The position numbers were made by a program, and so were the translations under genes. DNA of 46,049 nt from Candidatus Zipacnadia bacterium (lineage in GTDB: Bacteria; Armatimonadota; Zipacnadia; Zipacnadales; Zipacnadaceae). Within the stretch, counting starts at the first letter, position 1, and the number at the start of each line of letters is the position of its first letter. The notes beneath the pieces were generated by a model, which saw nothing but the letters and a program-made list of their open reading frames with translations, did no database searches and had not been told where the DNA came from. The stretch lies in the NCBI GenBank assembly GCA_029821455.1, contig JALGTI010000007.1, positions 1-46,049 of the forward strand, in the 5' to 3' direction. Positions 5,938 to 45,719 of the stretch are shown here, piece after piece.

Positions 5938-6012
5938 GAACCAGACCAGGGGGCTATTTGAGGGCAGTGCTCCGGATCTTCAGCAGGCACTGCGTGTGCT
6001 ATCGGGAGACGG

Positions 6013-8214: not shown

Positions 8215-8277
8215 CGGGTGCCGCGGTTCTCGGCCGCCACCCGCCGCACTCTCCAAGTGGCGTCTACACCCGACCGA

Positions 8278-28416: not shown

Positions 28417-28533
28417 GGTCAAATGTCCCCTTTTGTGGAAGATGCGGTATGCAGTGTTGGGAGATTTTAATGAACCCTTTGGGGGACTATATGCTTGACG
28501 TGCGCATAAGTAAGATGGCATGATGGCTAGGGT

Positions 28534-29778
28534 GTGTCCCTATTTATGGGGCAGAACCGAAGCGGGGTGAAATCAGTGGAAGATCATGCGCTGTTAAACG
28601 CGGTCACGGTGCGCTACATTAGAGAAGCACTTGAATCGCCGAGTGCAGGGCCATTCGGTGAGTTCAAAGGCCATCCACTTCTACTGCGTCGACACGAATA
28701 CGATAACGTCCTGGTGGACTACTCGGTTTTGTACATCCGCATGCCTTTGTCCGGCGAGGACTTGCCGCGGACAGAAGTGGGCGAGATGTTGCAGCCACTG
28801 GCCGAGCTATGCCAATCACGCAAAGCCGACGGAGAAACCTTGCCTGATGAGACATGGGTGTACGAGTGGTACTATCTTGAACTACTGGACAGGGATGAGC
28901 GCGTAGAGCCGATTTGCTGGATCAGGCCTGAGTTGCTGTACAAGGAGTTCCCCGACGACCGGGCACCAACCGTGCACACAGTGGGGCGCCGCGAACTGGT
29001 TTATCCAGCGCCATATAGCCACCAACTGGCCACCATGGACGCGGTCGCTAGAAGAGCAAGTTATTCCATCGCAGATCCTAAGGACACAGAGCAATGGCGC
29101 CATTGGTTGGTGGGGACGTGGCGAGAGCAGGAAAGGCACTGGATTGAGGAGGGCCTACTCATCCACGAGCAAGTGAAGCCGTGGACAAGGCTGCTGGCCT
29201 TCGATGCCACGTCTGTGGTCCGGGACGAACAAGCTGCATCCGGCTTAGACGACGGGGCCCCCGGAACGCTATTGGAGAGGATGATAGCTGACGCAGGCTA
29301 CCCAGGGCTCTACTGGACGCACATACCTGTCTACGACAGACGAAGACTGGGCAGCATTTGGGATGCTATGAAACATGAGATGTTTGTCACATCTGTCTTC
29401 AACTTGGCAGCCGGGCCGGCTCAGCAGCCCGCGCTTTGGGAGCGTCTCGAAGATCGCTTCGTCGTGCCCTTCCAGCGAATGTCCAGATACGATTACCTCG
29501 TTCGCCTGAGAGAGCAGAAGGTGCTGGAATGGTCGCGAGCGGGGAAAACAATCGCTGAAATGGCTGACCTGCTCATCGATGATAAGTTGTACACACTGGA
29601 TGAAGACGCCGCTGATACCATCAGCCGGCTTCCCCAGATGCTGAGAAGTGACATGTATCATGACAACGCCGAGCGACAGGTGCGGCGTATCCGCAGACGC
29701 CTCTGCGAGGACGGCCTCATCGAGAAACGGAAACCAGGCAGACCACGAAAGAGAAGCAACGACGAACACCCGGAATAG
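28534..29778 (+). CDS. Hypothetical protein with C-terminal HTH-like segment and AT-hook tail
   Basis: A 414-aa unbroken ORF, divergent from the integrase. EWSRAGKTIAEMADLL is HTH-like, and the tail KRKPGRPRKRS is an AT-hook-type GRP motif. The start is GTG 28534 or ATG 28546. I recognise no family. Confidence 0.65.
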   Translation: MSLFMGQNRSGVKSVEDHALLNAVTVRYIREALESPSAGPFGEFKGHPLLLRRHEYDNVLVDYSVLYIRMPLSGEDLPRTEVGEMLQPLAELCQSRKADGETLPDETWVYEWYYLELLDRDERVEPICWIRPELLYKEFPDDRAPTVHTVGRRELVYPAPYSHQLATMDAVARRASYSIADPKDTEQWRHWLVGTWREQERHWIEEGLLIHEQVKPWTRLLAFDATSVVRDEQAASGLDDGAPGTLLERMIADAGYPGLYWTHIPVYDRRRLGSIWDAMKHEMFVTSVFNLAAGPAQQPALWERLEDRFVVPFQRMSRYDYLVRLREQKVLEWSRAGKTIAEMADLLIDDKLYTLDEDAADTISRLPQMLRSDMYHDNAERQVRRIRRRLCEDGLIEKRKPGRPRKRSNDEHPE

Positions 29779-30034: not shown

Positions 30035-30070
30035 AGGAGGCGGGAGACGAGGTTTCGCCTCCTTTATTCT
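30035..30070 (+). terminator. Possible intrinsic terminator hairpin upstream of the defence operon
   Basis: aggaggcg (30035-30042) pairs with cgcctcct (30056-30063) across a 13-nt loop, followed by ttattct. The tail is only modestly U-rich. Confidence 0.35.
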
Positions 30071-30133: not shown

Positions 30134-33100
30134 ATGCAGATACCTGAACAGGGCCAACTTGTGCAGGTGCGACATCGCCACTTCATAGTGGAGGACGTTG
30201 CGCAGCACAAGGATGCCGGCTCTGCAACGCATCTTGTGGCGCTAGAGTGTCTGGATGATGATGCTCTGGGCAACAAGCTACAGGTTATCTGGGAGCGCGA
30301 ACTGAACACACGGGTCCTTGACACCAGTTCTCTACCTGTGCCCAAGGCGTGGGACCCGTCAGATCGCTTTGCTGCTTTCCTACATGCAATCCGGTGGTCC
30401 ACAAGCTCTCTAGTCGAGGGGGCACCCCTGCAGTCGGCATTTCGCGGCGCCATTGAACTTGATGAATACCAGTTGGTTCCCGTCATCCGCGCCCTGAGAA
30501 TGAACCGCGTGAGCCTGCTTCTGGCCGACGATGTCGGCCTCGGCAAGACCATTGAAGCAGCGCTCGTCATGCTGGAGTTGATGGCACGCCAGCGAGTGCG
30601 CCGGGTGATGATCGTCTGTCCGGCTTCCCTGCAGCGTCAGTGGCAGGAGGAAATGCAGACTAAGTTCCATCTGCCTTTCCACATACTTGATGCCAATGCC
30701 ATCCAAATGCTGCGTCGGGAGTTCGGCGTACACGTCAATCCATGGAACAGTTTTCCGCGTCTGATTACTTCCATGGATTTCCTCAAGCAGCAGAACCATC
30801 TGCAGACATTCATGTCATCGCTTTCGCGGCACAGGGCTGCAAGTGTGCTGCGTGACTGGGACTTGCTCATTGTTGACGAGGTCCACAACTGTACACCAGC
30901 CGGGCGCACCGGCGCCCGTGACTCGGATCGGTCACGCATGCTGCGGGACATCTCACCTCACTTCGAGCACAAGCTGTTCCTGACTGCCACACCGCATAAT
31001 GGCTACACCGAAAGCTTCACGGCTTTGCTCGAAATGCTGGATCCCCTCCGTTTCAGCCGCGGGCAGACGGTAAACCAGGACGCCCTGAAGCTAGTGCGCG
31101 TTCGGCGGCTCAAAGACGACATTACCGACAGCCTCGGACGCCGGAGATTCGCGCAACGCCACGTGGACGGGATCTCGGTCAGGCTCTCACCTGTCGAGGA
31201 GCAGATGTGCCAAGACCTCGACGCCTACTGCGAATCGCGCTTGTCCCGTGCCACACGCGATGATCAATTCGCCATACAGTTTGCCCTGACGATGTTGAAG
31301 AAACGCTTCCTCTCGTCACCGGAGGCTTTCTGGCTTTCACTGCAAACCCACACGAAAAGCGCCCAGGCTGATGATCGTGCTCCCGACCCCGAACTGACAA
31401 AACGCCTGTCCGAGCGCTCACAGGAAGATTGGGACGATGACGACGAGAAGGCCAGGATCGAGGAGGTCGCGTTGGAAGAGGCGTCCCAATTCTTCGCAGG
31501 TCTGACGCCCGATGAACGCAGCATGCTTGACCGGCTGATGCGATCTGCCGCAGAAGTGCGCGAGGGCGCGGACACCAAGGCGACATGTCTCATCAACTGG
31601 ATCCAAGAGCATCTGCAAGCCGATGGGGAATGGAACAACGAACGCCTCATCGTCTTTACTGAGTACCGTGATACACTGCGGCATCTGTATGACCTGTTCT
31701 CTGACGCAGGCTGGCAGGATCATGTCATGACTCTCACAGGGGGCATGCCGCAGCAAGAGCGAGAGCGGGTGAAGAGTGCTTTCCAGGCCGCACCGTCAAG
31801 TGATAGTCCGGTGCGCATTCTGCTGGGTACGGATGCCGCATCCGAGGGCCTTAACCTCCAGAACCACTGCCGTTATGTCATTCACCATGAGATTCCCTGG
31901 AACCCGAATCGGATGGAGCAGCGCAACGGACGCATTGACCGCCACGGGCAGAAAGCGCCGGACGTGTACTGCTCGCATTTCCACTATGAGAACAACGCCG
32001 ACCAGCGGTTCCTGGAAATCGTTGTTGAAAAGGTACGTACGCAGCGGGCCGACCTGGGGGCCGTCGGTGACATAATATCCGCGCAGGTTGAGGAAGCGAT
32101 TCTCGGTCTCCGAGACGAGATAGATGATCGCTACGAAGAGGTCCAACGACAAAGGTCCGACCTCCGTGCCGACAGTTGGGACGCCGACGACGCCAGGCAG
32201 ACGAAGGAACAACTGGTTGCTGCGCGCCGGGAGATGAACCTTTATCCGCAGACCATGGCTCAACTTCTCAGTCAAGCCCTTGCGCTCGCAGGCCGTCACG
32301 GTCTGGAGCAGCTCCAGGACGGCGAGCTGGTAGGAGTGGCATGGGATTTGCGAGAATTGCCGGCATCCTGGGCCGACTGTCGCCCGTCTCTGTACGATGA
32401 AAAGGGCGCCCGTTTGCGGCTCGTCTTCGACCCTGACGTTGCGAAGGACCGCACTGACGTCGCTCTGATCCACCTCGGCCATCCGCTCATGAAGCGTGCT
32501 ATTGCGACATTCAGGCACTTCTTGTGGGAGCAGATGCAGAGCACGGGGCCCACAGTACATCGCTGCAGCTATAGAGTGCTCCCGCACGCCGAATTGCACC
32601 GCCCGGCAATTGTCGTATTCGCCCGCACTGTAGCCATATCCAACTCCGGCGAGAAGATCCACGAGGCCTTGCTGCATGTTGGCGGTTGGATTGACGGCCA
32701 GCAGATTAAGCCCATTGATGCCAACTTGCTCGACCAGTCCATCAATGCAGAGTACTCCTATCCCTCGATCCCCGCGTCGCTTGGCGATGAGTTGCGCAAC
32801 CTCTTCCCTCATCACAGGAAGAAGCTGGAGGAGATGCTCAGTGAGATAGAGGAGACCGAGACTGGCCGCCTCGCAGAAATCCTGAAGCAGAAGGCAGACG
32901 CAGAGGTTGCCAACGTGCGCGACCTGATAGATGAGCGCATACGCGAGATCCAAGAGCGTCTCAAGCAAGCCGAGAAACGTCGCGAAGAAGCGCAGATGCG
33001 GCTCTTTGATCCCGATGTGGTCGAAGAGCACGAGCAGAGCATTCGCTGGTACAATCAGCGGCTGGACCAACTTGAGACTGATCGCAGGGAACGTCCAGCG

Positions 33101-33202
33101 GCGGTCCGCGAGCAATTCAGTCTCAAGCAGCTCCGCGTTTTCCCCATCGGCATGTTGTACCTGCTGCCCGATTCGCTGGTGGCCGAGAGGGGTGAGCAAT
33201 GA
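30134..33202 (+). CDS. drmD: SNF2-family helicase, DISARM DrmD-like
   Basis: ATG at 30134, 6 nt after ggagga. Motifs seen: LLADDVGLGKT, LLIVDEVHN, LFLTATPHNG, and LLGTDAASEGLNLQ...WNPNRMEQRNGRIDRHGQ. There is a long C-terminal coiled-coil extension. Its stop overlaps the next start (ATGA). Confidence 0.9.
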   Translation: MQIPEQGQLVQVRHRHFIVEDVAQHKDAGSATHLVALECLDDDALGNKLQVIWERELNTRVLDTSSLPVPKAWDPSDRFAAFLHAIRWSTSSLVEGAPLQSAFRGAIELDEYQLVPVIRALRMNRVSLLLADDVGLGKTIEAALVMLELMARQRVRRVMIVCPASLQRQWQEEMQTKFHLPFHILDANAIQMLRREFGVHVNPWNSFPRLITSMDFLKQQNHLQTFMSSLSRHRAASVLRDWDLLIVDEVHNCTPAGRTGARDSDRSRMLRDISPHFEHKLFLTATPHNGYTESFTALLEMLDPLRFSRGQTVNQDALKLVRVRRLKDDITDSLGRRRFAQRHVDGISVRLSPVEEQMCQDLDAYCESRLSRATRDDQFAIQFALTMLKKRFLSSPEAFWLSLQTHTKSAQADDRAPDPELTKRLSERSQEDWDDDDEKARIEEVALEEASQFFAGLTPDERSMLDRLMRSAAEVREGADTKATCLINWIQEHLQADGEWNNERLIVFTEYRDTLRHLYDLFSDAGWQDHVMTLTGGMPQQERERVKSAFQAAPSSDSPVRILLGTDAASEGLNLQNHCRYVIHHEIPWNPNRMEQRNGRIDRHGQKAPDVYCSHFHYENNADQRFLEIVVEKVRTQRADLGAVGDIISAQVEEAILGLRDEIDDRYEEVQRQRSDLRADSWDADDARQTKEQLVAARREMNLYPQTMAQLLSQALALAGRHGLEQLQDGELVGVAWDLRELPASWADCRPSLYDEKGARLRLVFDPDVAKDRTDVALIHLGHPLMKRAIATFRHFLWEQMQSTGPTVHRCSYRVLPHAELHRPAIVVFARTVAISNSGEKIHEALLHVGGWIDGQQIKPIDANLLDQSINAEYSYPSIPASLGDELRNLFPHHRKKLEEMLSEIEETETGRLAEILKQKADAEVANVRDLIDERIREIQERLKQAEKRREEAQMRLFDPDVVEEHEQSIRWYNQRLDQLETDRRERPAAVREQFSLKQLRVFPIGMLYLLPDSLVAERGEQ

Positions 33203-36200
33203 TGCGCCGCGAACCGACAGCCGGCAACCACGACTGGCTCTCGCTCGTCCGGACTTCCGGGCTGGTCGTGTCACTTCCCGTGCTCAACGCAGCGTTGCCT
33301 GAGGGGCCGGAGCCGGTTGACGATCGCATGCAGCGCAAGTTCGACCGTGCATGGCAGCGTTTCAACGTCGGACTGGAGCGACAGCGGTCTGACGCCCAGT
33401 CACGGTGGCTTGATTTCATCCTCGACGAGCTGCTGGGCCTGCAAGGCCGTTGGATCAGGCAGCATGATGTCCCCGAAAGCGCCACGCACATGCTCATCGA
33501 TTACCAGCAGGTGCTTCGGCCTCAGCGTATGCTTGTGGACGATAACGGCGACGCCCTACTCCTCGTAAGCATAGTGCCGCCGCACCAGAAGCTTGATGCC
33601 AAGGAGACCCACACCGGCACCTGGCGCGCCAGCCCGTTCCACAAGCTCGACCGCCTCCTGGGCGAGACGGGCGTCCGGTTCGGACTGCTCACCAATGGCC
33701 ACGAGTTCCGGCTGGTGCTCGCGCCTCCCGGACTGGGCGCCGCATACATCTCCTGGCAGGCCAGGGACTGGGCAGACGAAAAGATCCAGCTCGATAGCTT
33801 CCATGCGCTCCTCCATGCTGAGCGCTTCTACGGCGATGAAAAGAAGCGCCTGCAGAAGTTGGTCGAGGACAGCCAGGATAAGCAACTCGAACTCACCGAC
33901 CAGCTCGGCGACCAGGTCCGCCAGGCGCTCGAAGTCTTCCTCCGCGCAGTGGATCACTATGACCGCGAGCACGGCGGCGAAATCCTGCGCGGGATGGAGC
34001 ACCAGAACGCCTACGAGATGTGCCTTTTCACAATGATGCGCCTCGTCTTCATGCTGTACGCCGAAGAGAACTACCTGCTTCCCCACGGCGAGGTGCTATA
34101 TGACCAGGCCTACGGCGTGACACACCTGTGGAAGCAACTGTCCGACCAGCGCCGCGAAGCGCCAGAGGCCTTGGCGCACACCTTCGACGCCTATCCGCAG
34201 TTGCTTGCCACCTTTCGGCTCATACACCAGGGCTGCATCCATCCCGATCTCAACCTGCTCCCCTACGGCGGACATCTCTTCAACCCGGAGCGCTTTCCCG
34301 CTCTCGAGGACTCCCGCCTGCTCATTAACAACCAGGTGATGTATCTCGTGCTTCAGAAGCTGCTGTTCGCCCAGGCGCGCACTGCCGGCCGCACCGAGAT
34401 GCACCGGCTCAGCTACAGCGCACTCGACATCGAGCAGATCGGCACCGTCTATGAGGGCCTCCTCGGCTACACGGTCAGGCGCATTCCTGCCGACGAGACG
34501 AGCGTCGTTTTCCAGGGCAAGCACGACTCCATGCGGCCGCTTGATGAATTGGAAAGCCAGACGCCGGATGATCTGCCCGACTACATCCGCCAGCAGACCG
34601 GCTGGACGGAGAAGCAAGCTGAGAAGGCGCTGGAGCGGCTCGAACAGGAATCATCTGAGGTGCCGCCTCCGCCGCCCGGCATTGACAGCGATCTCTACCA
34701 GCGGCTGCTGAAGTTCCGCAGCTTCCTGAAGCTGGACGAGACCATCCCCGGTGGGCATCTGTATGTAGCTCACGAGTCCGGTCTGCGCAAGGGCCAGGGC
34801 GTCTATTACACGCCCAAGTGGATTACCTCCTGCATCGTCGAGCGCACACTGGAGCCGCTGGTGTATCAGCCAAGCGAGGGAACGCAGGGCGATCTCAAGT
34901 CCCCACGCGAGATCCTTGACCTCAAGGTCTGCGATCCCGCCATGGGCTCAGGCGCCTTCCTGGTGCAGGCCTGCCGCTACCTGGCCGACAAGCTCGTGGA
35001 AAGCTGGGATCGCCTAGCTGCAGAAAACCCGGAAAGCAAAGTCACGCTGCCCTACGGGGAACTCTCGCAGGACGAACCTGGCGAAATCATCTTGCCGGAG
35101 CACCATGAGGAAGCCGTCGTCTGGGCCCGCCGCTTCGTCGCCGAGCACTGCCTCTATGGTGTGGACATCAACCCCCTGGCCGTCGAGCTTGCCAAAATGT
35201 CGCTGTGGCTCATCACCCTTGCTAAGGACAGGCCCTTTGAGTTCCTCGACCACAAGCTGCGGCCCGGCGATTCGCTCATCGGGTGCCGAGGGGACGAACT
35301 TGGTGACTACCCCGTCAAGGCGTGGGGTAGAAAGGTCGAGGGGGACAAGCAAACTCAGGACGCCATCAAAGAACTCGCCAAAGTTGCCCGGCAGCAGGCC
35401 AAACGGCGGCGCAGTGAACGAGACACGGGAGTGCTTACACTCCTCGATGAAAAGCTGCAGCAGAAGCTGGCTGAGACCGCCGAAGAGCTGAGACGGATCG
35501 AGGATATGGACACCCTCGACCCCGGGGCCAAGGAAGCGGCATTCATCCGGCTTATCGAAGAAGATGAGGACTGGCAGCACTTGAAGCAAGCGTTCGATGC
35601 CTGGTGTGCGCTGTGGTTCTGGCCCGTGGGCGGCGAAACGCAGGCCGAAGACGTGCCCATGCCCCGCGACTATCCGGAGCTCCTCGAATACCTCCTAGGC
35701 GAAGACAGCGGCATGAGGACACTGCCCGAAGAACGCCTCGCGCGCTGGGCCGACCAGATCGAGACGCTCTGGAGAAAGCACCACTTCTTCCACTGGGAAC
35801 TTGAATTCCCAGACGCCTGCGCCGGCGAGGACCCCGGCTTCGATGCCATGGTCATGAACCCGCCGTGGGAGCGGATCAAGCTGCAGGAGAATGAGTTCTT
35901 CGCCGTCCGTGACCCCGACATAGCAGGGGCACCCAACGCGGCGGCACGCAAGAAGCTCATCGCTGCTCTTCCGGACACAAAGCCGTGGCTGCATGACGCA
36001 CATCTGGACGCCAAGGGTAGGGCCGACTTCACCAGCCATTTCATCAGGGAATCCGGCCACTTCCCGCTCAGCGCGGTCGGAGACATCAACACATACCCCA
36101 TATTCGCCGAACACGCCCGCAGCAGCATCAATACGCTAGGCGGCGTCGGCATGGTGATCCCCAGCGGCATCGCCACCGACTACTACACACAGGACTTCTT

Positions 36201-37527
36201 TGCCGACCTGATGGAAACCGGCACGCTCAGGGCCCTGTACGACTTTGAAAACCGGGAGCGCGCCTTCCCTGACCTTGACGCACGAACGAAGTTCACACTC
36301 CTGTTTCTGGCTCACGGGGCACCAGTGACGGATTTTGCCTTTTTCTTGACACGTCGACAGGACCTCGGAGACGAAGCGAGGCATGTGGCCCTTAGCGATG
36401 AAGACATCGCTCTCCTCAACCCAAACACGCGAACCTGCCCGATCTTCCGCAGCAAACGCGACGCACAACTGACCAAGCGGATCTACCGCCGTCACCCCGT
36501 GCTCATCCGCGAAATCTACGACGACGATGGCAACAAGGTCGGCGAGGAGAACCCCTGGGGTATCACGTTCGCCACCATGTTCCACATGACCAACGATTCG
36601 GATCTCTTCCGCCCGCGCGAGGAGCTGGAGTCCGACGGCTTCACCCTCCGCCAACCCGGCAACCACTTCGTCAAAGGCGAGGACGTGTGGCTGCCCCTCT
36701 ATGAGGGACGAATGCTCTGGCTCTTCGATCACAGGTACGTCTCCATGCAGGTAGCGGACGGCAGGACCTACCGTACAGCCGATTCGGCCCCGACGCGCCA
36801 AGCAGAGCACTGTAGCTCCTGCCATTCAGCGCTTCCTCGGTACTGGGTAGCTGAGGCCGAGTATCGTGCCGCGTTGCCCAGTATCGACGTACGGCCGTGG
36901 CATTTTGCGTTCAGGGATGTCACGAACCCTGTTACGGAACGCACTGTAGTAGGTGCGGTTATCCCCGCGATGCCAGCAGGAAACAAAGCTCCCTTCATCC
37001 TCTTCGGCGTTCGTCCCAGAATCGCGACGCTCCTCGTGGCGAACATCCTTTCGTTTCCGTTCGACTACTGCGCACGGCAGAAGTTGAGCTACTTGGGCCT
37101 CAACTTCTTCATCATGAAGCAGTTACCCGTGCTGCGACCGGACGAGTATGACCATGACCACCTGGACCACATAGCCGACCGCGTCCTGGAACTCACCTAC
37201 ACCGCGTGGGACATCAAGGCCTTCGCGGGGGACCTGGGCTATGACGGGCCGCCGTTTGTCTGGGATGAGGAGCGCCGCGCCCAACTCCGTGCCCAGCTTG
37301 ACGCGCTCTATTTCCACCTGTATGGTATTGAAAGAGACGATGTGGACCACATCATGGAGACCTTCCCGATAGTCAAGCGCAAGGACATCGCGGCCCACGG
37401 CCATTACCACACCAAAGACCTGATCCTGAGCTACTACGACGACCAGGCCGCCGGCGACTTCACCACCTGGCACGGCCCGGAGGAACTCAAAGAGCCAATG
37501 ATTCACCCGGACGACAGCAGGCCATAA
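33199..37527 (+). CDS. drmMI: Very large (1442 aa) gamma-class N6-adenine DNA methyltransferase, Eco57I/PglX-like, DISARM DrmMI-like
   Basis: Motifs seen: GVYYTPKWI, motif I DPAMGSGAFL (nt 34933 on), HCLYGVDINPLAVELAKMSLWL, and motif IV NPPW (35857-35868). There are long unassigned N- and C-terminal regions, and I saw no nuclease motif. Confidence 0.9.
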   Translation: MMRREPTAGNHDWLSLVRTSGLVVSLPVLNAALPEGPEPVDDRMQRKFDRAWQRFNVGLERQRSDAQSRWLDFILDELLGLQGRWIRQHDVPESATHMLIDYQQVLRPQRMLVDDNGDALLLVSIVPPHQKLDAKETHTGTWRASPFHKLDRLLGETGVRFGLLTNGHEFRLVLAPPGLGAAYISWQARDWADEKIQLDSFHALLHAERFYGDEKKRLQKLVEDSQDKQLELTDQLGDQVRQALEVFLRAVDHYDREHGGEILRGMEHQNAYEMCLFTMMRLVFMLYAEENYLLPHGEVLYDQAYGVTHLWKQLSDQRREAPEALAHTFDAYPQLLATFRLIHQGCIHPDLNLLPYGGHLFNPERFPALEDSRLLINNQVMYLVLQKLLFAQARTAGRTEMHRLSYSALDIEQIGTVYEGLLGYTVRRIPADETSVVFQGKHDSMRPLDELESQTPDDLPDYIRQQTGWTEKQAEKALERLEQESSEVPPPPPGIDSDLYQRLLKFRSFLKLDETIPGGHLYVAHESGLRKGQGVYYTPKWITSCIVERTLEPLVYQPSEGTQGDLKSPREILDLKVCDPAMGSGAFLVQACRYLADKLVESWDRLAAENPESKVTLPYGELSQDEPGEIILPEHHEEAVVWARRFVAEHCLYGVDINPLAVELAKMSLWLITLAKDRPFEFLDHKLRPGDSLIGCRGDELGDYPVKAWGRKVEGDKQTQDAIKELAKVARQQAKRRRSERDTGVLTLLDEKLQQKLAETAEELRRIEDMDTLDPGAKEAAFIRLIEEDEDWQHLKQAFDAWCALWFWPVGGETQAEDVPMPRDYPELLEYLLGEDSGMRTLPEERLARWADQIETLWRKHHFFHWELEFPDACAGEDPGFDAMVMNPPWERIKLQENEFFAVRDPDIAGAPNAAARKKLIAALPDTKPWLHDAHLDAKGRADFTSHFIRESGHFPLSAVGDINTYPIFAEHARSSINTLGGVGMVIPSGIATDYYTQDFFADLMETGTLRALYDFENRERAFPDLDARTKFTLLFLAHGAPVTDFAFFLTRRQDLGDEARHVALSDEDIALLNPNTRTCPIFRSKRDAQLTKRIYRRHPVLIREIYDDDGNKVGEENPWGITFATMFHMTNDSDLFRPREELESDGFTLRQPGNHFVKGEDVWLPLYEGRMLWLFDHRYVSMQVADGRTYRTADSAPTRQAEHCSSCHSALPRYWVAEAEYRAALPSIDVRPWHFAFRDVTNPVTERTVVGAVIPAMPAGNKAPFILFGVRPRIATLLVANILSFPFDYCARQKLSYLGLNFFIMKQLPVLRPDEYDHDHLDHIADRVLELTYTAWDIKAFAGDLGYDGPPFVWDEERRAQLRAQLDALYFHLYGIERDDVDHIMETFPIVKRKDIAAHGHYHTKDLILSYYDDQAAGDFTTWHGPEELKEPMIHPDDSRP

Positions 37528-37541
37528 GGGGGAAAGGGCAC

Positions 37542-38003
37542 ATGCAAATCGTCACGCTCGCATTGCCGATCTTAGTTGGTATTGTGGCGATAGTAGTTGG
37601 CATAATCAAGATTATCGAATTCTGCAGGGACCGAATCCGTATCAATGTCAGCGCCGAGTACATCTGTCTCGGTGAGCCTGCGCCTGCTGCCTCGAGACAG
37701 CTTGTAAGACTTACAGCGGTGAACCAAGGTAAACGGCCCGTTTCTTTGGACAGTGCCTATCTGATCTTCTCCGACGGCGGCAAGCTCTCGTATAAGAAAG
37801 AGCTCACTTATCATTCGAACGACGATCTGCCGTGCTTACTGCAAGACGGGGAGAGTTGTAGTGTCCACATTCCTGCCCAGCAACTCCGTGAGAAAGAGGC
37901 AGGCGGTAGTAAGGCCGTTGCCGTAGCTTTTCGAGACGCGTCCAATAGGGAATATCGGAGCAGTTTTCGGCCTGACGTCGCTTCCGAGAAGACCCAAAGA
38001 TGA
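37542..38003 (+). CDS. Hypothetical membrane-anchored protein (153 aa)
   Basis: ATG lies 14 nt after the methylase stop, behind aaggggga. It has an N-terminal TM helix (IVTLALPILVGIVAIVVGIIKII) and then a small soluble domain. It is visibly more A/T-rich than its neighbours: about 47 % G+C over the first 120 nt by hand count. Confidence 0.65.
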   Translation: MQIVTLALPILVGIVAIVVGIIKIIEFCRDRIRINVSAEYICLGEPAPAASRQLVRLTAVNQGKRPVSLDSAYLIFSDGGKLSYKKELTYHSNDDLPCLLQDGESCSVHIPAQQLREKEAGGSKAVAVAFRDASNREYRSSFRPDVASEKTQR

Positions 38004-38058
38004 TGAAGCCTGTCAGGGCACTGACCAGCTTTGCGGAGTAGCAAGCACCGCCAAGAAC

Positions 38059-38230
38059 ATGGCGCAACTGCGGCATGCACTCAAGATGTTGACGATCACC
38101 ATAACCGGAGACATGCTCGCCTGCTGCCGCGCCAAGAGCCTGATATTGAGATACTGCGACGGCCAGGCCGTCGGCAACTTCGACACCTGGCACGGCCCGG
38201 CGGACCTCAGAGAGCCCAGGATATACAAGC
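38059..38230 (+). pseudogene. Orphan duplicate of a DrmMI-type methyltransferase 3' end
   Basis: By hand alignment nt 38134-38216 match nt 37414-37496 at 68/83 positions. The translated remnant SLILRYCDGQAVGNFDTWHGPADLREP matches the methylase tail DLILSYYDDQAAGDFTTWHGPEELKEP. No upstream methylase body is present. Confidence 0.65.
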
Positions 38231-38240
38231 GAGGCTCAAC

Positions 38241-39326
38241 ATGCGTCGAGATGCTGAAGCAATGAAACAGAAGGCGATTGAGTCGGTGATAGGTGCGGTG
38301 GAGTTCTGCAATAGGCCTCACGACGAGGGGCGCGTCGTCGCGGTATTGTTCTTCTTGCAGCACGCATTCGAAATGCTCCTTAAGGCAGCCATACTGGTGG
38401 ACCGTGGGACGATACGCAAACCCACAGACGATCAGTCCTATGGCTTCGAGAAGTGCTGCAACATAGCAAGGAGCGAATTGAAGATCCTCACGCAAGATCA
38501 GCATCGCACACTATCCACGATAAATGGGCTGCGCGACGCGGCGACACATTACGTGGTCGACATGCCTGAGTCGGCCCTCTATGTGCATGCGCAAGCAGGT
38601 ATGACGATCTTTGATGATCTGCTGGACACGGTGTGTGGGGAGACACTCGCCGATCATCTGCCAGAACGCGTGTTGCCCCTTTCCACTACGCCTCCTCGCG
38701 ACATTGAGCTAATCATGGACGAGGAATTCAGCGAGTTGCAGGCTCTGGTTGCGCCCGGTCGACGACAAGGGCACTTGGCCAAACCACGCATGAGACACCT
38801 ACTGATAATGGAATCCAGCGTGCGAGGTCAACCGCGGCAGCCGACGGACGCTGAGGTGGACAAGACCTTAGGGAAACTTCGCAGCGCGAAGGACTGGCGG
38901 TTGCTCTTCCCGGGAGTCGCGGCCCTGAGGGTAGTGACAGACGGCAACGGGCCGACGATCACTCTGCGCATGGAGAAGCGCGGTGACGTTCCGATGCGGC
39001 CGCTGAGGGAGGGGGAGGATCCCGACAAGGCTCTCGTATATCGTGAGGTCAACATGCTGGACCGCTATTCGATGGGCCTCAGGGATTTGGCCACCAAGCT
39101 CCCCATCACGGAACCCAAGACACTGGCACTGATTCGGCATCTCAAACTGCAAGAGAACCCCGAGTGTTTCACAATAGTCAGAGTTGGCAACAGCGAGCAC
39201 AAACGCTATAGCGAGAACGCACTGCAACTGCTACGCGCAGCGCTCAGAGAAGTCGACATAGACGAAGTATGGAACGAGCATAGACCGCGCAGGACGGGCC
39301 CTACAGAGTCGGGAACCGGCCCGTGA
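38241..39326 (+). CDS. Hypothetical protein with DUF3644-like N-terminal helical domain
   Basis: ATG at 38241 (gagg 6 nt upstream), with ATG 38262 as an alternative. AIESVIGAVEFCNRPHDEGRVVAVLFFLQHAFEMLLKAAIL fits my memory of the DUF3644 pattern (A..AiE.YNkP......f..L..AwElLLKA). Confidence 0.7.
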   Translation: MRRDAEAMKQKAIESVIGAVEFCNRPHDEGRVVAVLFFLQHAFEMLLKAAILVDRGTIRKPTDDQSYGFEKCCNIARSELKILTQDQHRTLSTINGLRDAATHYVVDMPESALYVHAQAGMTIFDDLLDTVCGETLADHLPERVLPLSTTPPRDIELIMDEEFSELQALVAPGRRQGHLAKPRMRHLLIMESSVRGQPRQPTDAEVDKTLGKLRSAKDWRLLFPGVAALRVVTDGNGPTITLRMEKRGDVPMRPLREGEDPDKALVYREVNMLDRYSMGLRDLATKLPITEPKTLALIRHLKLQENPECFTIVRVGNSEHKRYSENALQLLRAALREVDIDEVWNEHRPRRTGPTESGTGP

Positions 39327-39367
39327 GCTTCAGTAGTTGTTGGCGCATAGGGGGTCTTTGAAGGCTC

Positions 39368-42300
39368 ATGCCCATGAACCCAATTCAACTCGGCGAGCAG
39401 GTTGTCGAGCACTTCCACCGCTATCTGCGGACCTACTTCCCCATTGCTGACCAGCGGATCGAGAGGCAGGTCAACGCTGCGCTTGCGGCCGGGCCAACCG
39501 GCGAACGCATGTTGGTCAAAGGCCCCTACATCCAACTCAACCGGCCCTTTGAGGAAGGCCCAACGCTTTCGGACTTCATCGAGCAGCACGATCTGCATCC
39601 GGCACTGACGGGCGTGTTCTCGCACATTGAGACTCTGCACAAGCACCAGGAGCTGGCCGCCGCAGCGACGCTCAGGGGGCGTCACACCATTTCGGCCACC
39701 GGCACCGGCTCCGGCAAGACGGAGTCATTCCTGCTGCCAATAGTTGAGCACTGCCTGCGGCTGCGTGACGAGGGCGCACCCGAAGGCGTAACGGCGATAC
39801 TGATCTACCCGATGAACGCGCTGGTGAACGACCAGCTCAAGCGTCTGCGTGAGATGCTGGCGGGCACCGGCATAACATTCGGGCGCTACACAGGAGAGAC
39901 GCCGTATCGGCGGATGGATGATATCCGGCAGCTTGACACGTCCCGCGCGTACAGCCCAGAGGAACTGGCGAGGCAGCGGGAAACGGGGGAGGAACTCCCC
40001 AGACCATATGAGGAGCGCATCAGCCGCGAAGACATAGTGGACGCGCCACCGCGCATCCTCCTGACCAACTACAAGCAGATGGAGTACTTGCTGTCGCGGG
40101 CCCGTGATCTGAAGCTGTTCGACGGCGCTCCGGTACGCTTCCTGGTCATGGACGAAGTACATACGTACACCGGAGAGCTGGGGTCGGAAGTGGCGTGCCT
40201 GGTGCGCCGCCTGCGGTATCTGATCGGGAAATCCCCGGAGGAGCTTCTCTGTATTGGCACCTCCGCGACCGTTGCCGACCCCAGCGGGGAGATAGATGGT
40301 GCAAAGGCCGTCCGCAACTTCGCCCACCGTCTATTCGGCATCCCGGAAGACAGCATCGAGATAGTGGAGGAGCAGTACAAGGAATTACCTCCTGCGCCGA
40401 GGGACACGTACGCCCCGCGGTCGCCCTCGGATGCTCAAGCAATGCTGGATGAGGTCTTGGAAGTGACGCATCCGGTTCACGTACAGGATGAGGTGGAGGA
40501 TATATCGGACGATGTGGTCACCGTGGCCGAAAGCCTGTGCCAGCGCAGGGCGCCTGTGAGCGGCCCGAACCAGGAGCGGCTGTACGAGCTGCTATCGGCT
40601 AACTCGCTGGTACGCCACTTGGAACGGCAACACCAGTCGCCGATGCTGCTGCAAGACACGCTCGAGGGCCTCCGCAAGATCGGCGACCGTGCCGATGTGG
40701 ATCGAGAAGACTTGGCCGCGGAACTGTTGGCGTACTTGACATTGGGCGCACTGGCTCAACGTGAAGATGAGCCACTATTGCGTCCGAAGCTGCACTACTT
40801 CGTCCAGGGCTATCAAGGGATATTCGTGAGCTTTGAGCCGCGAATCAACTCTGATGCTGCAGAAGAACTGGAACCTGTGGTGCACTTCAGGCAGCAGGGC
40901 GGCGAGGAGCGCGGCGACGGCCTGCCCTTGCCGCTCTATCTGTGCCGGGCCTGCGGCCAGCACTACTTCCCCCTGATCGTCAGCGAAGCCGTTTCGGCCG
41001 ACGATGATGGTCAGGGCGCTTGTTATCGACCGGTAGCGCTATGGGACGGGCGCAGTCACATTGATGAAGAGGTCTTGTGGTATCTGACAGACCGTCTGCA
41101 CACTGAAGACGAGGATGAAGCGGACAAGTGGGAACCGCACTATATGTGCCGCTATTGCGGGTCACTGCATGATGCAGACCATGGCCGGTGTTTGAATGAG
41201 AAGTGCCAGCGTCAGGGCCCACTGGTTGCAATGCATGGCTTCCCGGGTGAGCCTAAGACATGCGCCGCATGTGGTGCGGCTAACTGGACCAAGGCCCGTA
41301 CCATCTCCGGTACCCGCAGCGCGGCGGCGGCAGACATCATGATCCTTGCTCAGTCTCTGCTGACCGGCATGCAGGAACCGAGCATGCGGAAACTGCTAAT
41401 CTTCGCCGACAACCGCCAGGAGGCCGCCTTCCAGGCGGGCTTTATGGACAAGCGGTTTAAGCGCATAGCACTGCGACAGTTGTTGTACGACGCATTGGCC
41501 GATGACCCCGATGAGCGATGGATCATAGACGGCCTGACCGACCGCCTGCTACGAGATGCGCAGAGCAAAGGGATCGTCGAGACCCGGTCCGCGTACGAGG
41601 ACCGCAGGGAAGCAAGACGGATTAAGTGGTTCTTGCTCCAGGAGTTCGCGTCTACCCGTGAACGACGTGGATCGCTTGAGACACTGGGACTTGCTGGGAT
41701 TGAATACCGGGGTCTCGAGGTTGACGCCGACCCCAGCTTTTTCGAGCGTTGGGCTGAAGTCTTTGGCGTCGCGCCGCAGGAGCTGGTGGACACCGTAGCT
41801 CTCATCCTGGACTATTATCGGCGACGGGGTACGCTGTCAGATGATTTGATGACGCACTGGTGGGGCTATCAAGACAAAGACGTGCGAGACGGTATCATCC
41901 AGGTCCATGACCACTGGGCGCCAACTACGCTCAATCTGCACAAGCCAGCTGAGGGCAGCATCACCAAGGGGTTGATCGCCAGCAACGGCCGCTCTGCGGC
42001 AGAGATGATAATGGGCAAGGCGGCGCAGAAGAACGCTGATCGAGGCGACCAGTTTCTGGAAGACCTCTGGGACTGGCTCACGGCCGCTGAAAGGCAGCTG
42101 CTCAAGCCGGTGAGGTTGACCAGGAAGAGACACGGCCACGATGAAGAACTGAGGGACATCGCTCGGACTTATCAGGTGAACGTTGACAAAGTGGCGCTTC
42201 ACCGTTCAGACCATCGGCACCTGTGTTCCGTGTGTCGCCGCGCACAGGTCAGGCCATTGCCGAGTGGCTTGTGTCCCGAGTATGGGTGTAAGGGCGAAAC

Positions 42301-44599
42301 TGAGGATAGTCCTGTGGACAGCGAGGATTTTGCGGTAGTCCAGTACACACGACTGCCCTTCGTCCCACTAAGGCCGGCTGAGCATACAGCACAGGTACCC
42401 CAGGAAAAGCGCCACGAAATCGAGAGAGAATTCCAACAGACAGATGGGGAATACAACTGCATAGTCTGCACTCCGACTCTGGAATTGGGTGTGGACATCG
42501 GCAAGTTGGAGATGGCCTTGATGCGCAATGTGCCGCCGACGCCAGCAAACTATGCGCAACGGGCTGGCCGGGCGGGACGTAAGCATCGCATCGCGGTGAT
42601 CTTCTCATACTGCGGCGGAAGCTCACATGACCGCTACTTCTTCGATGAGCCGCCTGAGGTCATCAGCGGCTCGATCCGGGTGCCAGCATTCAGCATGCAG
42701 AACTCACCGCTGATACGCAAGCACGTGTATTCCGCACTGCGTACTGAGCTCTTGCGTGACGGTGATGACGCGAGGGTACAGACGGCGATGAACGTGGCAT
42801 TCCCTGACTACATTTGGCGATACTTCGCGGTCAAGACGGAAGATGCCAACGGGGAAGAAATCATCTCATATCTTAGTGAGCCACCGAAGCTCGATGACCT
42901 GGCGATGTTGCTGACAGAGGAGGAAACCAGACTGCAGGCGGTGCTGCAGGAGGCATTCACTGAGAACTGGCCGGCGTCCGACGATGACGCGGTACAGGCT
43001 GACCGTCTTACCGAGCATATGGCTCAAATGCCGCAGAGACTGAGCGCTCATGTTTCCATTCTCTTCAGGAGGGTACGTGCATACCAAGACGAGCTTGACA
43101 GGCTCAGACAAGGGGGGAGCGCCGTACTGACACCCAGCCAGATACGACGCCGGGGCCAGTTCGAAGCATCCATACACAAGCTGTCGAACAAGGGGCGTGA
43201 CAACTACACTCTGACGTACCTGAGCAATGACGGTTTTCTGCCAGGCTATGCTTTGGACAGGGGTTCCTGTACGGCAACTAGCTTGGAGCCATTCATGGAG
43301 GTTTCGCGGTCCCTGCCGGTTGCCTTGCGCGAATTCGCGCCTGCAAGCTGGACATACGCCGACGGAAACGTTTTCCGGATAGTCAGGATCGTCTTTCAGA
43401 ATCCCAGACATGCTGTCGGTGATCAGATCGCCGGCGCGGCAAGACGCCAAGTGTGCATCCAGACTGACAGTGGTCGTCTGTTCGCTCCCGACACGTCAGC
43501 GACCGAGGGTGGGGCGTCGCTGCAAACACTCGATTCCCTGCTTCTAGCTGGCGTCAATCTGGTAGCGGCACAGCCAATAGACGATCTCCGCGAGACGAGG
43601 ATACGGGTGGGCTATGACATCAGGGGCATGATGCTGGGTGAACATGCAGGCGGCTGGCGGGGTAGCATAGCAGACAGGAGTATTGACTACCTGCGCCTGC
43701 AACGCCTCCGACTAGTCAACCTGGGACCTTTGGGCGAGCCGGCTCAGGATCCTGATGGGGGTTTCGTGATATGCCCGGTCTGTGGTGCCGTGAGATCGCC
43801 ATTCGCCGACAGAGATGAGATTGATGACTTCGAGACCAAGCACAAGCAGAGCTGCGCTGCTGACATGTTGAAGGGGTTCTGCTTGCACGTTGATTTCGTT
43901 TCCGATGTGATATTGCTCAAGCCCTTCGATTCTGAGCCTGCAGCCATAAACGCAATGACCGGCCTATTGGCAGGTGTGTCACAGGTGCTGGATATGGGGG
44001 AGAGCGAGCTGGAGGGTCTGATTCTGCCAGAAGACGGGGACACTTGGAGCATACTCATTTACGACCCCACTCCTGGCGGCTCGGGCTTCCTGGCACAGAT
44101 GTGCGACCATTGGCGGATCATATGCGAACGCGGCATCGAGCTGATAAGCAGTTGCGACAACTGTGGCGAAGACGAAGCCTGCTATGGCTGTCTCAAGCAT
44201 TATCGTAATCAGCAGCACCACGAGCAGCTAAGCAGGGCCATCGCCTGCCATGTGCTTGAGGAACTTGCCACTGACATCCAACACGAGCATGATGTTCCTC
44301 CGAGGTTGCCTGAGGGCAGCGACGCTGCGGAGGAACCGGAAAGCGGCGCTGAAGAGCTTCTCGAACGGATACTGGAGGAGCGCTCCTTCCCCTTGCCACC
44401 TCAGCGTCAATTGCGTGTAGACCTCGGTGCCACATACACAGTGGCAGACTTCGCCTATCCTGAATACAACGTATTGGTATACGTGGACGGCCTGTCGGTT
44501 CATAATCCCGACCTGGACGCCATCACGACGGCCAAACTGCGGCACGAAGGCTATCAAGTGGTCAGCTCAGGGATCCAGGCCTGCTGCCAGTGTTTCTGA
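39368..44599 (+). CDS. drmA-drmB: Fusion protein: DExH helicase (DrmA-like) + DUF1998 zinc domain (DrmB-like) + C-terminal DUF559/Vsr-like nuclease-fold domain
   Basis: Helicase motifs are ATGTGSGKTESF, FLVMDEVHTY, CTPTLELGVDIG and YAQRAGRAGRK. Several Zn-ribbon-like CxxC pairs lie between the RecA lobes. The DUF1998-like part contains LSNDGFLPGYALD, REFAPASWTYADGNVF and CDNCGEDEACYGCLKHYRNQ. The tail is ELLERILEERSFPLPPQRQLRVDLGATYTVADFAYPEYNVLVYVDGLSVH...KLRHEGYQVV. Confidence 0.9.
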   Translation: MPMNPIQLGEQVVEHFHRYLRTYFPIADQRIERQVNAALAAGPTGERMLVKGPYIQLNRPFEEGPTLSDFIEQHDLHPALTGVFSHIETLHKHQELAAAATLRGRHTISATGTGSGKTESFLLPIVEHCLRLRDEGAPEGVTAILIYPMNALVNDQLKRLREMLAGTGITFGRYTGETPYRRMDDIRQLDTSRAYSPEELARQRETGEELPRPYEERISREDIVDAPPRILLTNYKQMEYLLSRARDLKLFDGAPVRFLVMDEVHTYTGELGSEVACLVRRLRYLIGKSPEELLCIGTSATVADPSGEIDGAKAVRNFAHRLFGIPEDSIEIVEEQYKELPPAPRDTYAPRSPSDAQAMLDEVLEVTHPVHVQDEVEDISDDVVTVAESLCQRRAPVSGPNQERLYELLSANSLVRHLERQHQSPMLLQDTLEGLRKIGDRADVDREDLAAELLAYLTLGALAQREDEPLLRPKLHYFVQGYQGIFVSFEPRINSDAAEELEPVVHFRQQGGEERGDGLPLPLYLCRACGQHYFPLIVSEAVSADDDGQGACYRPVALWDGRSHIDEEVLWYLTDRLHTEDEDEADKWEPHYMCRYCGSLHDADHGRCLNEKCQRQGPLVAMHGFPGEPKTCAACGAANWTKARTISGTRSAAAADIMILAQSLLTGMQEPSMRKLLIFADNRQEAAFQAGFMDKRFKRIALRQLLYDALADDPDERWIIDGLTDRLLRDAQSKGIVETRSAYEDRREARRIKWFLLQEFASTRERRGSLETLGLAGIEYRGLEVDADPSFFERWAEVFGVAPQELVDTVALILDYYRRRGTLSDDLMTHWWGYQDKDVRDGIIQVHDHWAPTTLNLHKPAEGSITKGLIASNGRSAAEMIMGKAAQKNADRGDQFLEDLWDWLTAAERQLLKPVRLTRKRHGHDEELRDIARTYQVNVDKVALHRSDHRHLCSVCRRAQVRPLPSGLCPEYGCKGETEDSPVDSEDFAVVQYTRLPFVPLRPAEHTAQVPQEKRHEIEREFQQTDGEYNCIVCTPTLELGVDIGKLEMALMRNVPPTPANYAQRAGRAGRKHRIAVIFSYCGGSSHDRYFFDEPPEVISGSIRVPAFSMQNSPLIRKHVYSALRTELLRDGDDARVQTAMNVAFPDYIWRYFAVKTEDANGEEIISYLSEPPKLDDLAMLLTEEETRLQAVLQEAFTENWPASDDDAVQADRLTEHMAQMPQRLSAHVSILFRRVRAYQDELDRLRQGGSAVLTPSQIRRRGQFEASIHKLSNKGRDNYTLTYLSNDGFLPGYALDRGSCTATSLEPFMEVSRSLPVALREFAPASWTYADGNVFRIVRIVFQNPRHAVGDQIAGAARRQVCIQTDSGRLFAPDTSATEGGASLQTLDSLLLAGVNLVAAQPIDDLRETRIRVGYDIRGMMLGEHAGGWRGSIADRSIDYLRLQRLRLVNLGPLGEPAQDPDGGFVICPVCGAVRSPFADRDEIDDFETKHKQSCAADMLKGFCLHVDFVSDVILLKPFDSEPAAINAMTGLLAGVSQVLDMGESELEGLILPEDGDTWSILIYDPTPGGSGFLAQMCDHWRIICERGIELISSCDNCGEDEACYGCLKHYRNQQHHEQLSRAIACHVLEELATDIQHEHDVPPRLPEGSDAAEEPESGAEELLERILEERSFPLPPQRQLRVDLGATYTVADFAYPEYNVLVYVDGLSVHNPDLDAITTAKLRHEGYQVVSSGIQACCQCF

Positions 44600-45002
44600 A
44601 TGAGCTGGCGGTGTACCTCGGACGCGAAGAGCTATTGAGCGGCGGCTAGCCGGTGAGGTAGGTCTATCGATCTTGTGCTGCGAGCGCCCTGGACCCAGCC
44701 GATTGCCCGTCAGATTATTGACACGGACAGCACCGGTCACCAGTTCATGACTGGCGGACTAACTTCGTCCCTCAGGGCCTGCGGCACGTCGTCCTCCTGA
44801 CGGAACAGGCCCAGCAGGCGGGACAGCCCGGTGGCAATGTCTGGTTCAAGGGGATGCTCCTGCTACAGCAAAAGGAATCTGCGCACCCAACGCCGAACTC
44901 CGATAGCAGGTAGCTGGTCGTTCAGCAGCAAACACCAGAGCGCCCGTTTGATATGGGCAATCCCAATCAAGAGCCCAGAGGAAGAAGCCCAGGAGGAGCA
45001 AC

Positions 45003-45719
45003 ATGGCCGGCGGACACGGACGAGAGTTAGCCTTCGAGATCCAGGGCGACGACCTTGCGTCTCTTGAGAGAGCATTCGAAGACGGGTTCACCATGCTCAG
45101 GGAGCCCTTGGCCGTGGCCTTCCTGGTTGAGCACCCCGAATTGGTCTCTGTGTACTTCCTCTCTCAAGTCGCCGACCTGATCCGCTCTGAGGCCAACGCA
45201 GACAAGTGGATTGCGCTCTTCGGCAATGAGACTGCTCGGCGGGTCCTCTTCCTGGAGGACCAGGAGTGCCTGCAGAAGGCGCGTGATATGTGGGCTTGGG
45301 AGAGCGAGGTGGTGGCCTACGACGTGTCTTTCACCGTAGAAGCGGTCGCGGACAGTGGAGCGCCGCGCGAGGCCAACGAAGGGGGAATCCACAGGGCCTG
45401 GAAACCACAGAGCCTCTGCATCGACATGGAAGGGCTGTTCCAGGAGTCGCAGCTGCCTCCCGACACCAGGCAGCGCAAGGTGTCAGACAGCGTCTTCGAG
45501 TTGATCGTACGCCGGCCCGCTGATGATGACGCGCGTGCCCTGAGGGCCGGGGTCTGTGAAGAGGTGCTTGGCTGGCTCAACGCATACACCTTCCTCACGG
45601 GTGTAGCTCTGAGGCTGCGCGTAGACGGCAGCATGTCGCCTGTGTACCGGCGGCTATCGGGGTGGAGGGTCGGTGCCGAGCATCGTATTGCCCCCCTGCC
45701 CCCAATAGATGAACTCTAG
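45003..45719 (+). CDS. Hypothetical protein (238 aa)
   Basis: ATG at 45003, 5 nt after aggaggag. The ORF is unbroken with gene-like composition. I recognise no family. Confidence 0.55.
   Translation: MAGGHGRELAFEIQGDDLASLERAFEDGFTMLREPLAVAFLVEHPELVSVYFLSQVADLIRSEANADKWIALFGNETARRVLFLEDQECLQKARDMWAWESEVVAYDVSFTVEAVADSGAPREANEGGIHRAWKPQSLCIDMEGLFQESQLPPDTRQRKVSDSVFELIVRRPADDDARALRAGVCEEVLGWLNAYTFLTGVALRLRVDGSMSPVYRRLSGWRVGAEHRIAPLPPIDEL

Follow-up and report, generated by a model that had tools for sequence, protein, structure and literature searches.

The window, a 46,049-nucleotide (nt) stretch of Candidatus Zipacnadia bacterium DNA, very probably carries at positions 30134-44649 an ARMADA Type I defence locus, which has the gene order ArmA-ArmB-ArmC, adjoins two recombinase genes and holds two cargo genes between armB and armC. 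The operon consists of five co-directional open reading frames (ORFs) on the plus strand, at 30134..33202, 33199..37527, 37542..38003, 38241..39326 and 39368..44599, which we number so that gene 1 is armA, gene 2 is armB, genes 3 and 4 are the embedded pair and gene 5 is armC. Their junctions are, in order, a 4-nt ATGA overlap (33199-33202) and gaps of 14, 237 and 41 nt. A preliminary description had given this same layout, and the motifs that it quoted for genes 1, 2 and 5 were all recovered at their positions. It had read the operon as a defence system related to DISARM class 1 with a composition not known to it from any described system. The relationship is borne out by our analysis and the claim of novelty is not, so that this interpretation is partly supported and is superseded by the description of ARMADA. 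The locus is a fresh instance of things already described, ARMADA Type I and an embedded PDC-S19 gene, and not a novel class of system. The features of the operon are as follows.

30134..33202, plus strand: armA (DrmD-like), an SNF2/RapA-like ATPase of 1022 residues, from NCBIfam, PADLOC and Pfam profiles and motifs
33199..37527, plus strand: armB (DrmMI/PglX-like), a gamma-class N6-adenine DNA methyltransferase of 1442 residues, from profiles and motifs
37542..38003, plus strand: gene 3, a 153-residue protein predicted to combine a single N-terminal transmembrane helix with a beta-sandwich domain, from an AlphaFold2 (AF2) model and a library search
38127..38222, plus strand: remnant of an armB-type methyltransferase 3' end, about 31 codons, between genes 3 and 4, filling part of the 237-nt gap
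38241..39326, plus strand: gene 4, a DUF3644 HEPN-domain protein and predicted RNase of 361 residues, a member of PADLOC PDC-S19, from profiles and a motif
39368..44649, plus strand: armC, a DExH helicase of the YprA family that contains zinc-binding inserts, is fused to OB-CON-DUF1998 and ends in a putative Vsr-like nuclease
40943..41272, plus strand: zinc-binding insert rich in cysteines that separates the two RecA-like halves of ArmC, from eight cysteines invariant in an alignment of 26 homologues
44153..44191 (ArmC residues 1596-1608), plus strand: DUF1998/MZB four-cysteine cluster, C-x2-C-x5-C-x2-C, from the motif and Pfam MZB
44330..44649, plus strand: ArmC C-terminal Vsr-like (PD-(D/E)xK) nuclease domain, from invariant residues, a profile and an AF2 model, its last helices out of frame

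ARMADA was described by Bell et al. (2025, bioRxiv 10.1101/2025.09.15.676423 / PMC12458937) with a BrxHII/RapA-like helicase and a PglX-like methyltransferase, both common to DISARM class I, and a YprA-like helicase that is nearest to that of Druantia, is fused to OB-CON-DUF1998 and ends in a Vsr-type nuclease. In the same work these helicases fall in a separate clade with Druantia, apart from DISARM/Dpd. Because a core of SNF2 helicase, methylase and helicase is thus already catalogued as ARMADA (PMC12458937; PMC13463889), the claim of novelty falls, an already catalogued system being what the preliminary description had itself named as decisive against it. A search with ArmC gives over 6000 homologues at E≤1e-10, with identities of up to 61%, a typical length of 1760-1770 residues and an identical set of Pfam domains. 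Three homologues that are 42-45% identical to ArmC at about 100% coverage, P0040 (MCG2766883.1), P0047 (MBN1947324.1) and P0070 (MBW2703779.1), appear, on accession look-up, in Table S1 of Bell et al. under the label 'ARMADA Type I helicase' (PMC12458937). The identical label is carried there by the contigs of L033, L039, L046 and L051, which we had recovered independently with the ArmC profile. Clade membership is judged from these labels of homologues and contigs and not from a tree.

The filing under Type I rests on these labels together with the absence of ArmD, the single Vsr-like domain, the single CxxC pair in the OB region and the presence of archaeal relatives. No ArmD (RelE-GajB) gene lies downstream of armC inside the window, where the sole ORF, of 238 residues, has no Pfam or PADLOC match and shows neither helicase nor RelE features. 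ArmC ends right after one Vsr-like domain, with neither an EEP nor a second Vsr domain, and its OB region has only the pair C1469/C1472, which agrees with the one zinc-binding insert that Type I is reported to have. The order of ArmA/ArmB followed by ArmC is kept in 29 related loci, archaeal ones included (e.g. L031). In ARMADA Type II, in contrast, the order ArmA-ArmB-ArmC is strict, the RelE-GajB-like helicase ArmD comes next, and ArmC often bears extra EEP and Vsr domains (PMC12458937). The armABCD loci of E. coli NCTC 12900, ATCC 8739 and EDL933 share with the window the order of the first three genes and the domain logic, but the ArmD and the extra EEP and second Vsr domains usual in Type II are missing from the window, and Type II was rejected because no ArmD lies directly downstream of armC within it. 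In experiments Type II protects directly and non-abortively, for which ArmA and ArmC need their ATPase motifs and ArmB its NPPW motif (PMC12458937, PMC13463889); PMC13463889 is the source of the names ArmA to ArmD and validates Type II experimentally a second time, with DefenseFinder calling ARMADA II there. With Type I as published, the locus shares the ArmA/ArmB/ArmC trio, a single C-terminal domain that is putatively a Vsr-like nuclease, the lack of ArmD and a phyletic spread that includes archaea. It differs in that its gene order is the one called 'reversed' in PMC12458937 and found there mainly in archaea and cyanobacteria, whereas the window and the 29 related loci span many bacterial phyla, and in that two cargo genes split armB from armC and the 3' end of armC is frameshifted. 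A tblastn search of ArmC against plasmids gave only distant matches (≤34% identity), which are uninformative for typing.

The first two core genes are those shared with DISARM. ArmA scores 1009 bits against the NCBIfam equivalog NF038317 (DISARM_DrmD; cut-off 610), 1051 bits against PADLOC DrmD and, more weakly, 304 bits against BrxHII. It contains the Pfam domains SNF2-rel_dom and Helicase_C, with the motifs DDVGLGKT at residue 132, DEVHN at 248, TATPHNG at 284 and QRNGRIDRHGQ at 596. An alternative GTG start is present at 30074; as the DISARM_DrmD alignment starts at residue 4 of the product read from the ATG at 30134, the latter is the likely start of armA. ArmB finds its best PADLOC match in DrmMI, at 773 bits, matches Pfam Eco57I, N6_Mtase, MmeI_Mtase and MmeI_N, and carries DPAMGSGAFL (S-adenosylmethionine-binding) at residue 579 and NPPW at residue 887. 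The profiles by which the preliminary description had proposed to check its assignments gave SNF2 in gene 1, N6_Mtase/Eco57I in gene 2, DUF3644 in gene 4, and helicase together with MZB/DUF1998 in gene 5.

In ArmC the Pfam domains DEAD, Helicase_C and MZB (the DUF1998 zinc domain, residues 1533-1609) all lie in one polypeptide, which had been taken for a fusion of DrmA and DrmB. This identification does not survive the profile comparison, as PADLOC DruE1 and DruE3 score 380 and 370 bits (in four stretches each) while the DrmA models reach at most 61 bits and NCBIfam DISARM_DrmAL 24 bits (cut-off 999), so the helicase is Druantia-like and not DrmA-like. A non-canonical DISARM class 1 operon, with a fusion of DrmA and DrmB, another nuclease domain in place of DrmC and two inserted genes, is therefore highly improbable. 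Such a system would accommodate an ArmA above the DISARM_DrmD cut-off and an ArmB best matched by DrmMI, and its helicase plus DUF1998 content equals DrmA plus DrmB; what the locus shares with DISARM class 1 (drmD, drmMI, drmA, drmB, drmC) is indeed an SNF2 helicase, an N6-adenine methyltransferase and a YprA-family helicase with DUF1998 chemistry. In DISARM, however, helicase and DUF1998 are separate genes, the helicase belongs to another YprA clade and the nuclease is the PLD protein DrmC, whereas the locus has one Druantia-like polypeptide with a Vsr-like nuclease, whose homologues are listed as ARMADA Type I (PMC12458937). DrmC was correctly reported missing, as no DrmC or PLD match was found in the five operon proteins or the flanking ORFs, and there is no separate DrmB gene, DUF1998 being fused to the helicase; with DrmA, DrmB and DrmC absent, DISARM class 1 was rejected in spite of the DrmD and DrmMI homologues. 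A Druantia-type system, built from a DruE helicase with unusual partners, has a slimmer chance still. DruE is the closest relative of the helicase by profile score, and it too is a large YprA-type protein with zinc modules and a C-terminal nuclease-fold domain, but its matches to ArmC are fragmented, and no homologue of DruA-D, DruF/G/M or DruH accompanies the helicase at this locus, a DruH- or DruA-like gene being absent also from the 82 related loci that we compared. Moreover, the C-terminus of ArmC is Vsr-like with conserved acidic and histidine residues, unlike the PLD domains of Druantia Type III, and its partners are the SNF2 and methyltransferase pair that defines ARMADA. Druantia was rejected for want of a partner gene match, and BREX because there is no BrxA/B/C or PglZ.

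The architecture of ArmC was judged from the same 26-homologue alignment. Helicase motifs I (GTGSGKT at residue 112, with K117), II (DEVH at 262) and VI (QRxGRxGR, here QRAGRAGR at 1064) are invariant, as are the cluster C953/C956/C969/C974 and the pair C1469/C1472. About 670 residues separate DEAD from Helicase_C, and this spacing holds four invariant cysteine pairs (C526/C529, C594/C597, C608/C613 and C632/C635; residues 526-635). From its sequence, this insert would correspond to the beta-barrel zinc-binding module of the ARMADA/Druantia lineage, with a putative fold here. In the DUF1998 cluster three of the four cysteines are invariant (C1596, C1605 and C1608). The nuclease domain, which had been recognised as different from that of DISARM, has all of the invariant residues D1694, D1707, H1712 and D1717, and its AF2 model (predicted local distance difference test score, pLDDT, of 79) shows an alpha-beta3-alpha-beta-alpha topology. 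A Vsr fold, the assignment made for this domain by Bell et al. (PMC12458937), is consistent with the model but not independently proven.

The assembled armC ORF has the boundaries previously given (39368..44599, 1743 residues), although these do not include its natural end. Near 44561 the reading frame is shifted, and the ORF stops at 44599 reading '...GYQVVSSGIQACCQCF'. The conserved tail of the family, 'RLSSGQLRDPGLLPVFLNELAVYLGREELLSGG' (about 33 residues), sits in another frame and reaches a stop codon at 44647-44649; it is 67-70% identical to the tails of the homologues P0002 and P0004. Compared with P0002, about 16 nt are absent after 44560, and the frame-repaired protein of about 1766 residues matches the family norm. 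The frameshift is either an assembly indel or a real loss of the last helices of the nuclease domain.

The two genes between armB and armC are best described as cargo, because they do not recur in related loci, the junction is variable, close relatives differ at it and the homologues of gene 4 stand alone. When all window proteins were searched with phmmer against the ORFs of the 82 related loci, neither gene 3 nor gene 4 had a homologue among them; the gene order, whose conservation the preliminary description had proposed to test, is kept for the ArmA/ArmB-then-ArmC core and not for this pair. In 11 of the 29 loci with ArmB upstream of ArmC, which come from the set L001-L068, armB abuts or overlaps armC. 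In the other 18, 0.8-7.6 kb of mostly co-directional genes are inserted, and the inserted ORFs are almost all mutually unrelated. The two closest ArmC relatives (61% identity) hold different cargo at this junction, and in the sister locus L001 the ArmB C-terminus is the same as that of the window and the cargo is different. Many of the inserts are established or candidate defence genes by PADLOC, as listed here for the armB-armC junctions of ten loci.

L047: TIR-APAZ and short pAgo
L046: DarT and DarG
L059: Dsr1-like, PDC-M55C/HEC-05
L041: AbiLi
L025: AbiEii, ZacB-like
L020: HEC-01A
L001: HEC-03B/NsnB-like; HEC-05 (GmrSD-like)
L061: HEC-03B/NsnB-like
L040: PDC-S11
L057: RmrA-like

About one third of the inserted ORFs scanned at these junctions had no PADLOC match. 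Single ORFs of 240-304 residues occupy the junction in L009 (7565-8473), L013 (9037-9945), L048 (9073-9987) and L021 (9268-9990); they have no PADLOC match and no mutual similarity, and are possible uncharacterised embedded defence candidates. Two further observations concern the related loci themselves. In L001 (GCA_025563055.1), which encodes the closest ArmC homologue, four genes upstream of armC are duplicated as a perfect mirror image (positions 228-4844 and 4909-9525). The break falls inside the 3' end of armB, and the arrangement looks like an error of assembly by which armA and armB are hidden. Full-length ArmC homologues of about 33% identity in L022, L028 and L055 have no detectable ArmA or ArmB in their 10-kb flanks, and are either solo helicases or separated from their partners by very long insertions.

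The gene remnant that had been reported in the 237-nt gap is real, and it derives from the 3' end of an armB gene. Positions 38127-38222 are 80% identical to armB 37407-37502 without gaps (96 nt) and 83% with gaps (89 nt); the counterpart is the last ~96 nt of armB ahead of its final eight codons, with the reading frame preserved (remnant peptide AKSLILRYCDGQAVGNFDTWHGPADLREPRI, ArmB TKDLILSYYDDQAAGDFTTWHGPEELKEPMI). It is the sole direct repeat in 24000-46049 (22 kb, 13-nt seed). As only 18 nt separate the remnant from the start of gene 4, this gene earlier probably lay right behind an armB allele, and the present armB and gene 3 were probably joined on later through recombination. Partial duplicates of the armB 3' end are also found on the armC side of the cargo in L018 (3178-3709 and 4105-4720; 93% nucleotide identity over 287 nt) and L061 (7088-7380 and 9362-9738). 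The scars in the window and in these two loci support the gain or exchange of cassettes via recombination at the 3' end of armB. What is new here is the armB 3' remnant as a recombination scar, along with the frameshift by which armC loses its last ~30 codons.

The preliminary description had regarded both inserted genes as unassigned. Their insertion between methylase and helicase is confirmed, but gene 4 belongs to a catalogued family, as it matches PADLOC PDC-S19 at 431 bits over positions 1-352 of the 357 in the model, which is full length. It also matches Pfam DUF3644 (2.2e-13), a HEPN family (PMC3710099), and has the HEPN Rx4H motif as R98-DAAT-H103. Its closest known relatives include PDC-S19, HEC-08 and the Ishtar HEPN proteins. 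HEC-08, a different DUF3644 protein whose defence activity requires the HEPN histidine (Payne et al. 2024, bioRxiv 10.1101/2024.01.29.577857), differs from gene 4 in its C-terminal part, and the PADLOC HEC-08 models gave no match to gene 4. We found 809 gene 4 homologues, occurring as single genes among housekeeping genes or in conjugative elements; the contexts inspected showed no conserved neighbour and no gene 3-like partner.

Gene 3 belongs to a sparse but real protein family and, as modelled, is a putative membrane-anchored cargo protein. It has no PADLOC or NCBIfam match and no Pfam match above cut-off, and a library of 1.8 billion proteins yielded 67 representatives at E≤1e-3, mostly of 145-160 residues, with conserved AVNxGRRPV and LPC motifs. 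Its AF2 model has a pLDDT of 88.7, and Foldseek returned only generic ApaG/Ig-like sandwiches. For the contexts of gene 3 homologues, a word-indexed search found the window's own protein only, and a narrower alignment gave only two short contigs, neither informative. A few very long proteins (2000-3500 residues) match gene 3 repeatedly, in the case of P0246 in 19 stretches.

Two other explanations bear on the state of the operon rather than on its family. It is very unlikely that genes 3 and 4 are integral subunits of a five-gene ARMADA variant, for instance a HEPN RNase effector and a membrane sensor acting under ArmABC. Their shared orientation and the short gaps that set them off from the neighbouring core genes (14 and 41 nt) do make co-transcription probable, and an RNase partner has a precedent in the RelE domain of Type II ArmD, but the failure of either gene to recur, the different content of this site in the closest ArmC relatives, the solitary homologues of gene 4 and the armB remnant, which shows that separate recombination events joined the two genes, all speak for cargo. 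Decay of the locus into a non-functional ARMADA relic within an old integrated element is less easily set aside but still unlikely. It would fit the truncated ArmC nuclease domain, the armB remnant and the lack of att repeats or a tRNA in the window; against it, apart from that truncation the five ORFs run unbroken through 14.5 kb and keep every catalytic motif and the invariant residues, and a single indel could equally be an assembly error, as the contig may come from a metagenome assembly.

Some points weigh against an ARMADA Type I locus of the kind proposed. Anti-phage activity of Type I is a prediction by analogy, the experimental tests concerning Type II only, and the window ends at 46049, 1.4 kb past armC, so that a downstream partner is conceivable beyond it. 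The frameshift lies inside the nuclease domain, and this copy of armC may therefore be impaired unless the contig has an indel error. For the same domain the best match of a profile search against the PDB was 3r3p_A, at a weak E=0.018, and the top bacterial Foldseek matches of the model were PvuRts1I and AbaSI, whose cleavage domains we take to be Vsr-like; these matches, at E~0.3, fall short of significance. Internal BrxA-like, MarR-like and coiled-coil domains of ArmC are putative, PDC-S19 is a candidate family with a predicted defence role, and the methylation motif, the self/non-self logic and any interplay of gene 4 with ARMADA are drawn by analogy.

With these points in mind, a mechanism can be proposed for the ARMADA Type I locus from family knowledge and by analogy with the tested ARMADA Type II, DISARM DrmAB and Druantia DruE. 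ArmB would methylate adenines in a motif of the host DNA and thereby mark it as self. ArmA, as an SNF2 translocase, and ArmC, as a YprA-type helicase that combines zinc modules with an OB-CON-DUF1998 'canopy' and a Vsr-like nuclease, would engage unmodified incoming or replicating phage DNA by ATP-driven translocation and unwinding, probably at single-stranded or forked intermediates. DISARM DrmAB and Druantia DruE are reported to act on intermediates that contain single-stranded DNA. The Vsr-like domain of ArmC would then cleave the engaged DNA, a direct destruction that the cell would survive. Gene 4 would probably add an autonomous second layer of the HEPN RNase type that shares the transcription of the operon, and gene 3, a predicted membrane-anchored beta-sandwich protein, may be further cargo. 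This cargo would have arrived via recombination at the armB 3' end, leaving the 96-nt remnant between the two genes.

The embedding of defence genes in Hma, BREX, DISARM and Type I restriction-modification systems has already been described, and genes found inside the last three kinds of system served to define the PDC families (Payne et al. 2024, bioRxiv 10.1101/2024.01.29.577857). The arrangement here is alike in that gene 4 is nested co-directionally in a methylase/helicase system and in that the cargo of related loci includes HEC and PDC families of that study; it differs in its host, ARMADA Type I, and in its site, the armB-armC junction. As a tentative extension, which we consider possible but somewhat doubtful as a whole, this junction may be a dedicated intra-operon hotspot in the ArmA-ArmB-ArmC lineage of Type I, where unrelated defence cassettes are swapped by recombination anchored at the 3' end of armB; the gene 3 family would then be an unrecognised embedded defence or regulatory gene, and the HEPN RNase would be coupled to ARMADA as a backup layer.

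The value of the locus, which belongs under ARMADA Type I and not in a new DISARM-like class, is as an example. The 'reversed' gene order is widespread in bacteria, beyond archaea and cyanobacteria, and the armB-armC junction repeatedly hosts other defence genes, with scars of the armB 3' end that record the exchange of cargo. Screening this junction might turn up new defence candidates like the gene 3 family, and natural pairs like ARMADA with a HEPN RNase could serve tests of synergy between DNA-targeting and RNase-type systems. Once the armC frameshift is resolved, this compact three-gene Type I representative with known cargo is potentially useful as a test construct.

Judging from its surroundings, the locus appears to be cargo carried by an integrated element that ends, on its right side, outside the window. 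The following features lie outside the operon.

25052..27067, minus strand: large serine recombinase with C-terminal GerE/LuxR-type helix-turn-helix (HTH) domains (Pfam Resolvase, Recombinase, Zn_ribbon_recom, GerE)
27478..28521, minus strand: tyrosine integrase (Pfam Phage_integrase, 1.4e-28; Phage_int_SAM_1)
30035..30063, plus strand: terminator-like hairpin and T-rich tail directly ahead of armA, with an 11-pair stem including six G-C pairs, by consensus match only

The hairpin separates the operon from a 414-residue ORF at 28534..29778. This ORF and the 238-residue ORF at 45003..45719 have no Pfam or PADLOC match and no homologue in the 82 related loci, and we do not count them as parts of the system. 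As neither a tRNA nor an att-like flanking direct repeat is present in the window, the boundaries of the island are undefined. The remaining ORFs of the window encode carbohydrate and redox enzymes. The serine recombinase at 25052-27067 has an unusual architecture, with extra GerE/LuxR and sigma-70 region-4-like HTH domains. Further upstream, a family-8 polysaccharide lyase ORF on the minus strand (15383-18613) opens with an rve_3 integrase-core segment (residues 8-73), which suggests that the remnant of an insertion sequence or transposase is joined to it in frame, or sits directly upstream, around 18.4-18.6 kb. Finally, DUF7662 proteins are encoded both in the window, at 6193-7332 (23 kb upstream of the operon), and in L001, at 16485-17504 (just downstream of armC), which may reflect coincidence or a shared element.

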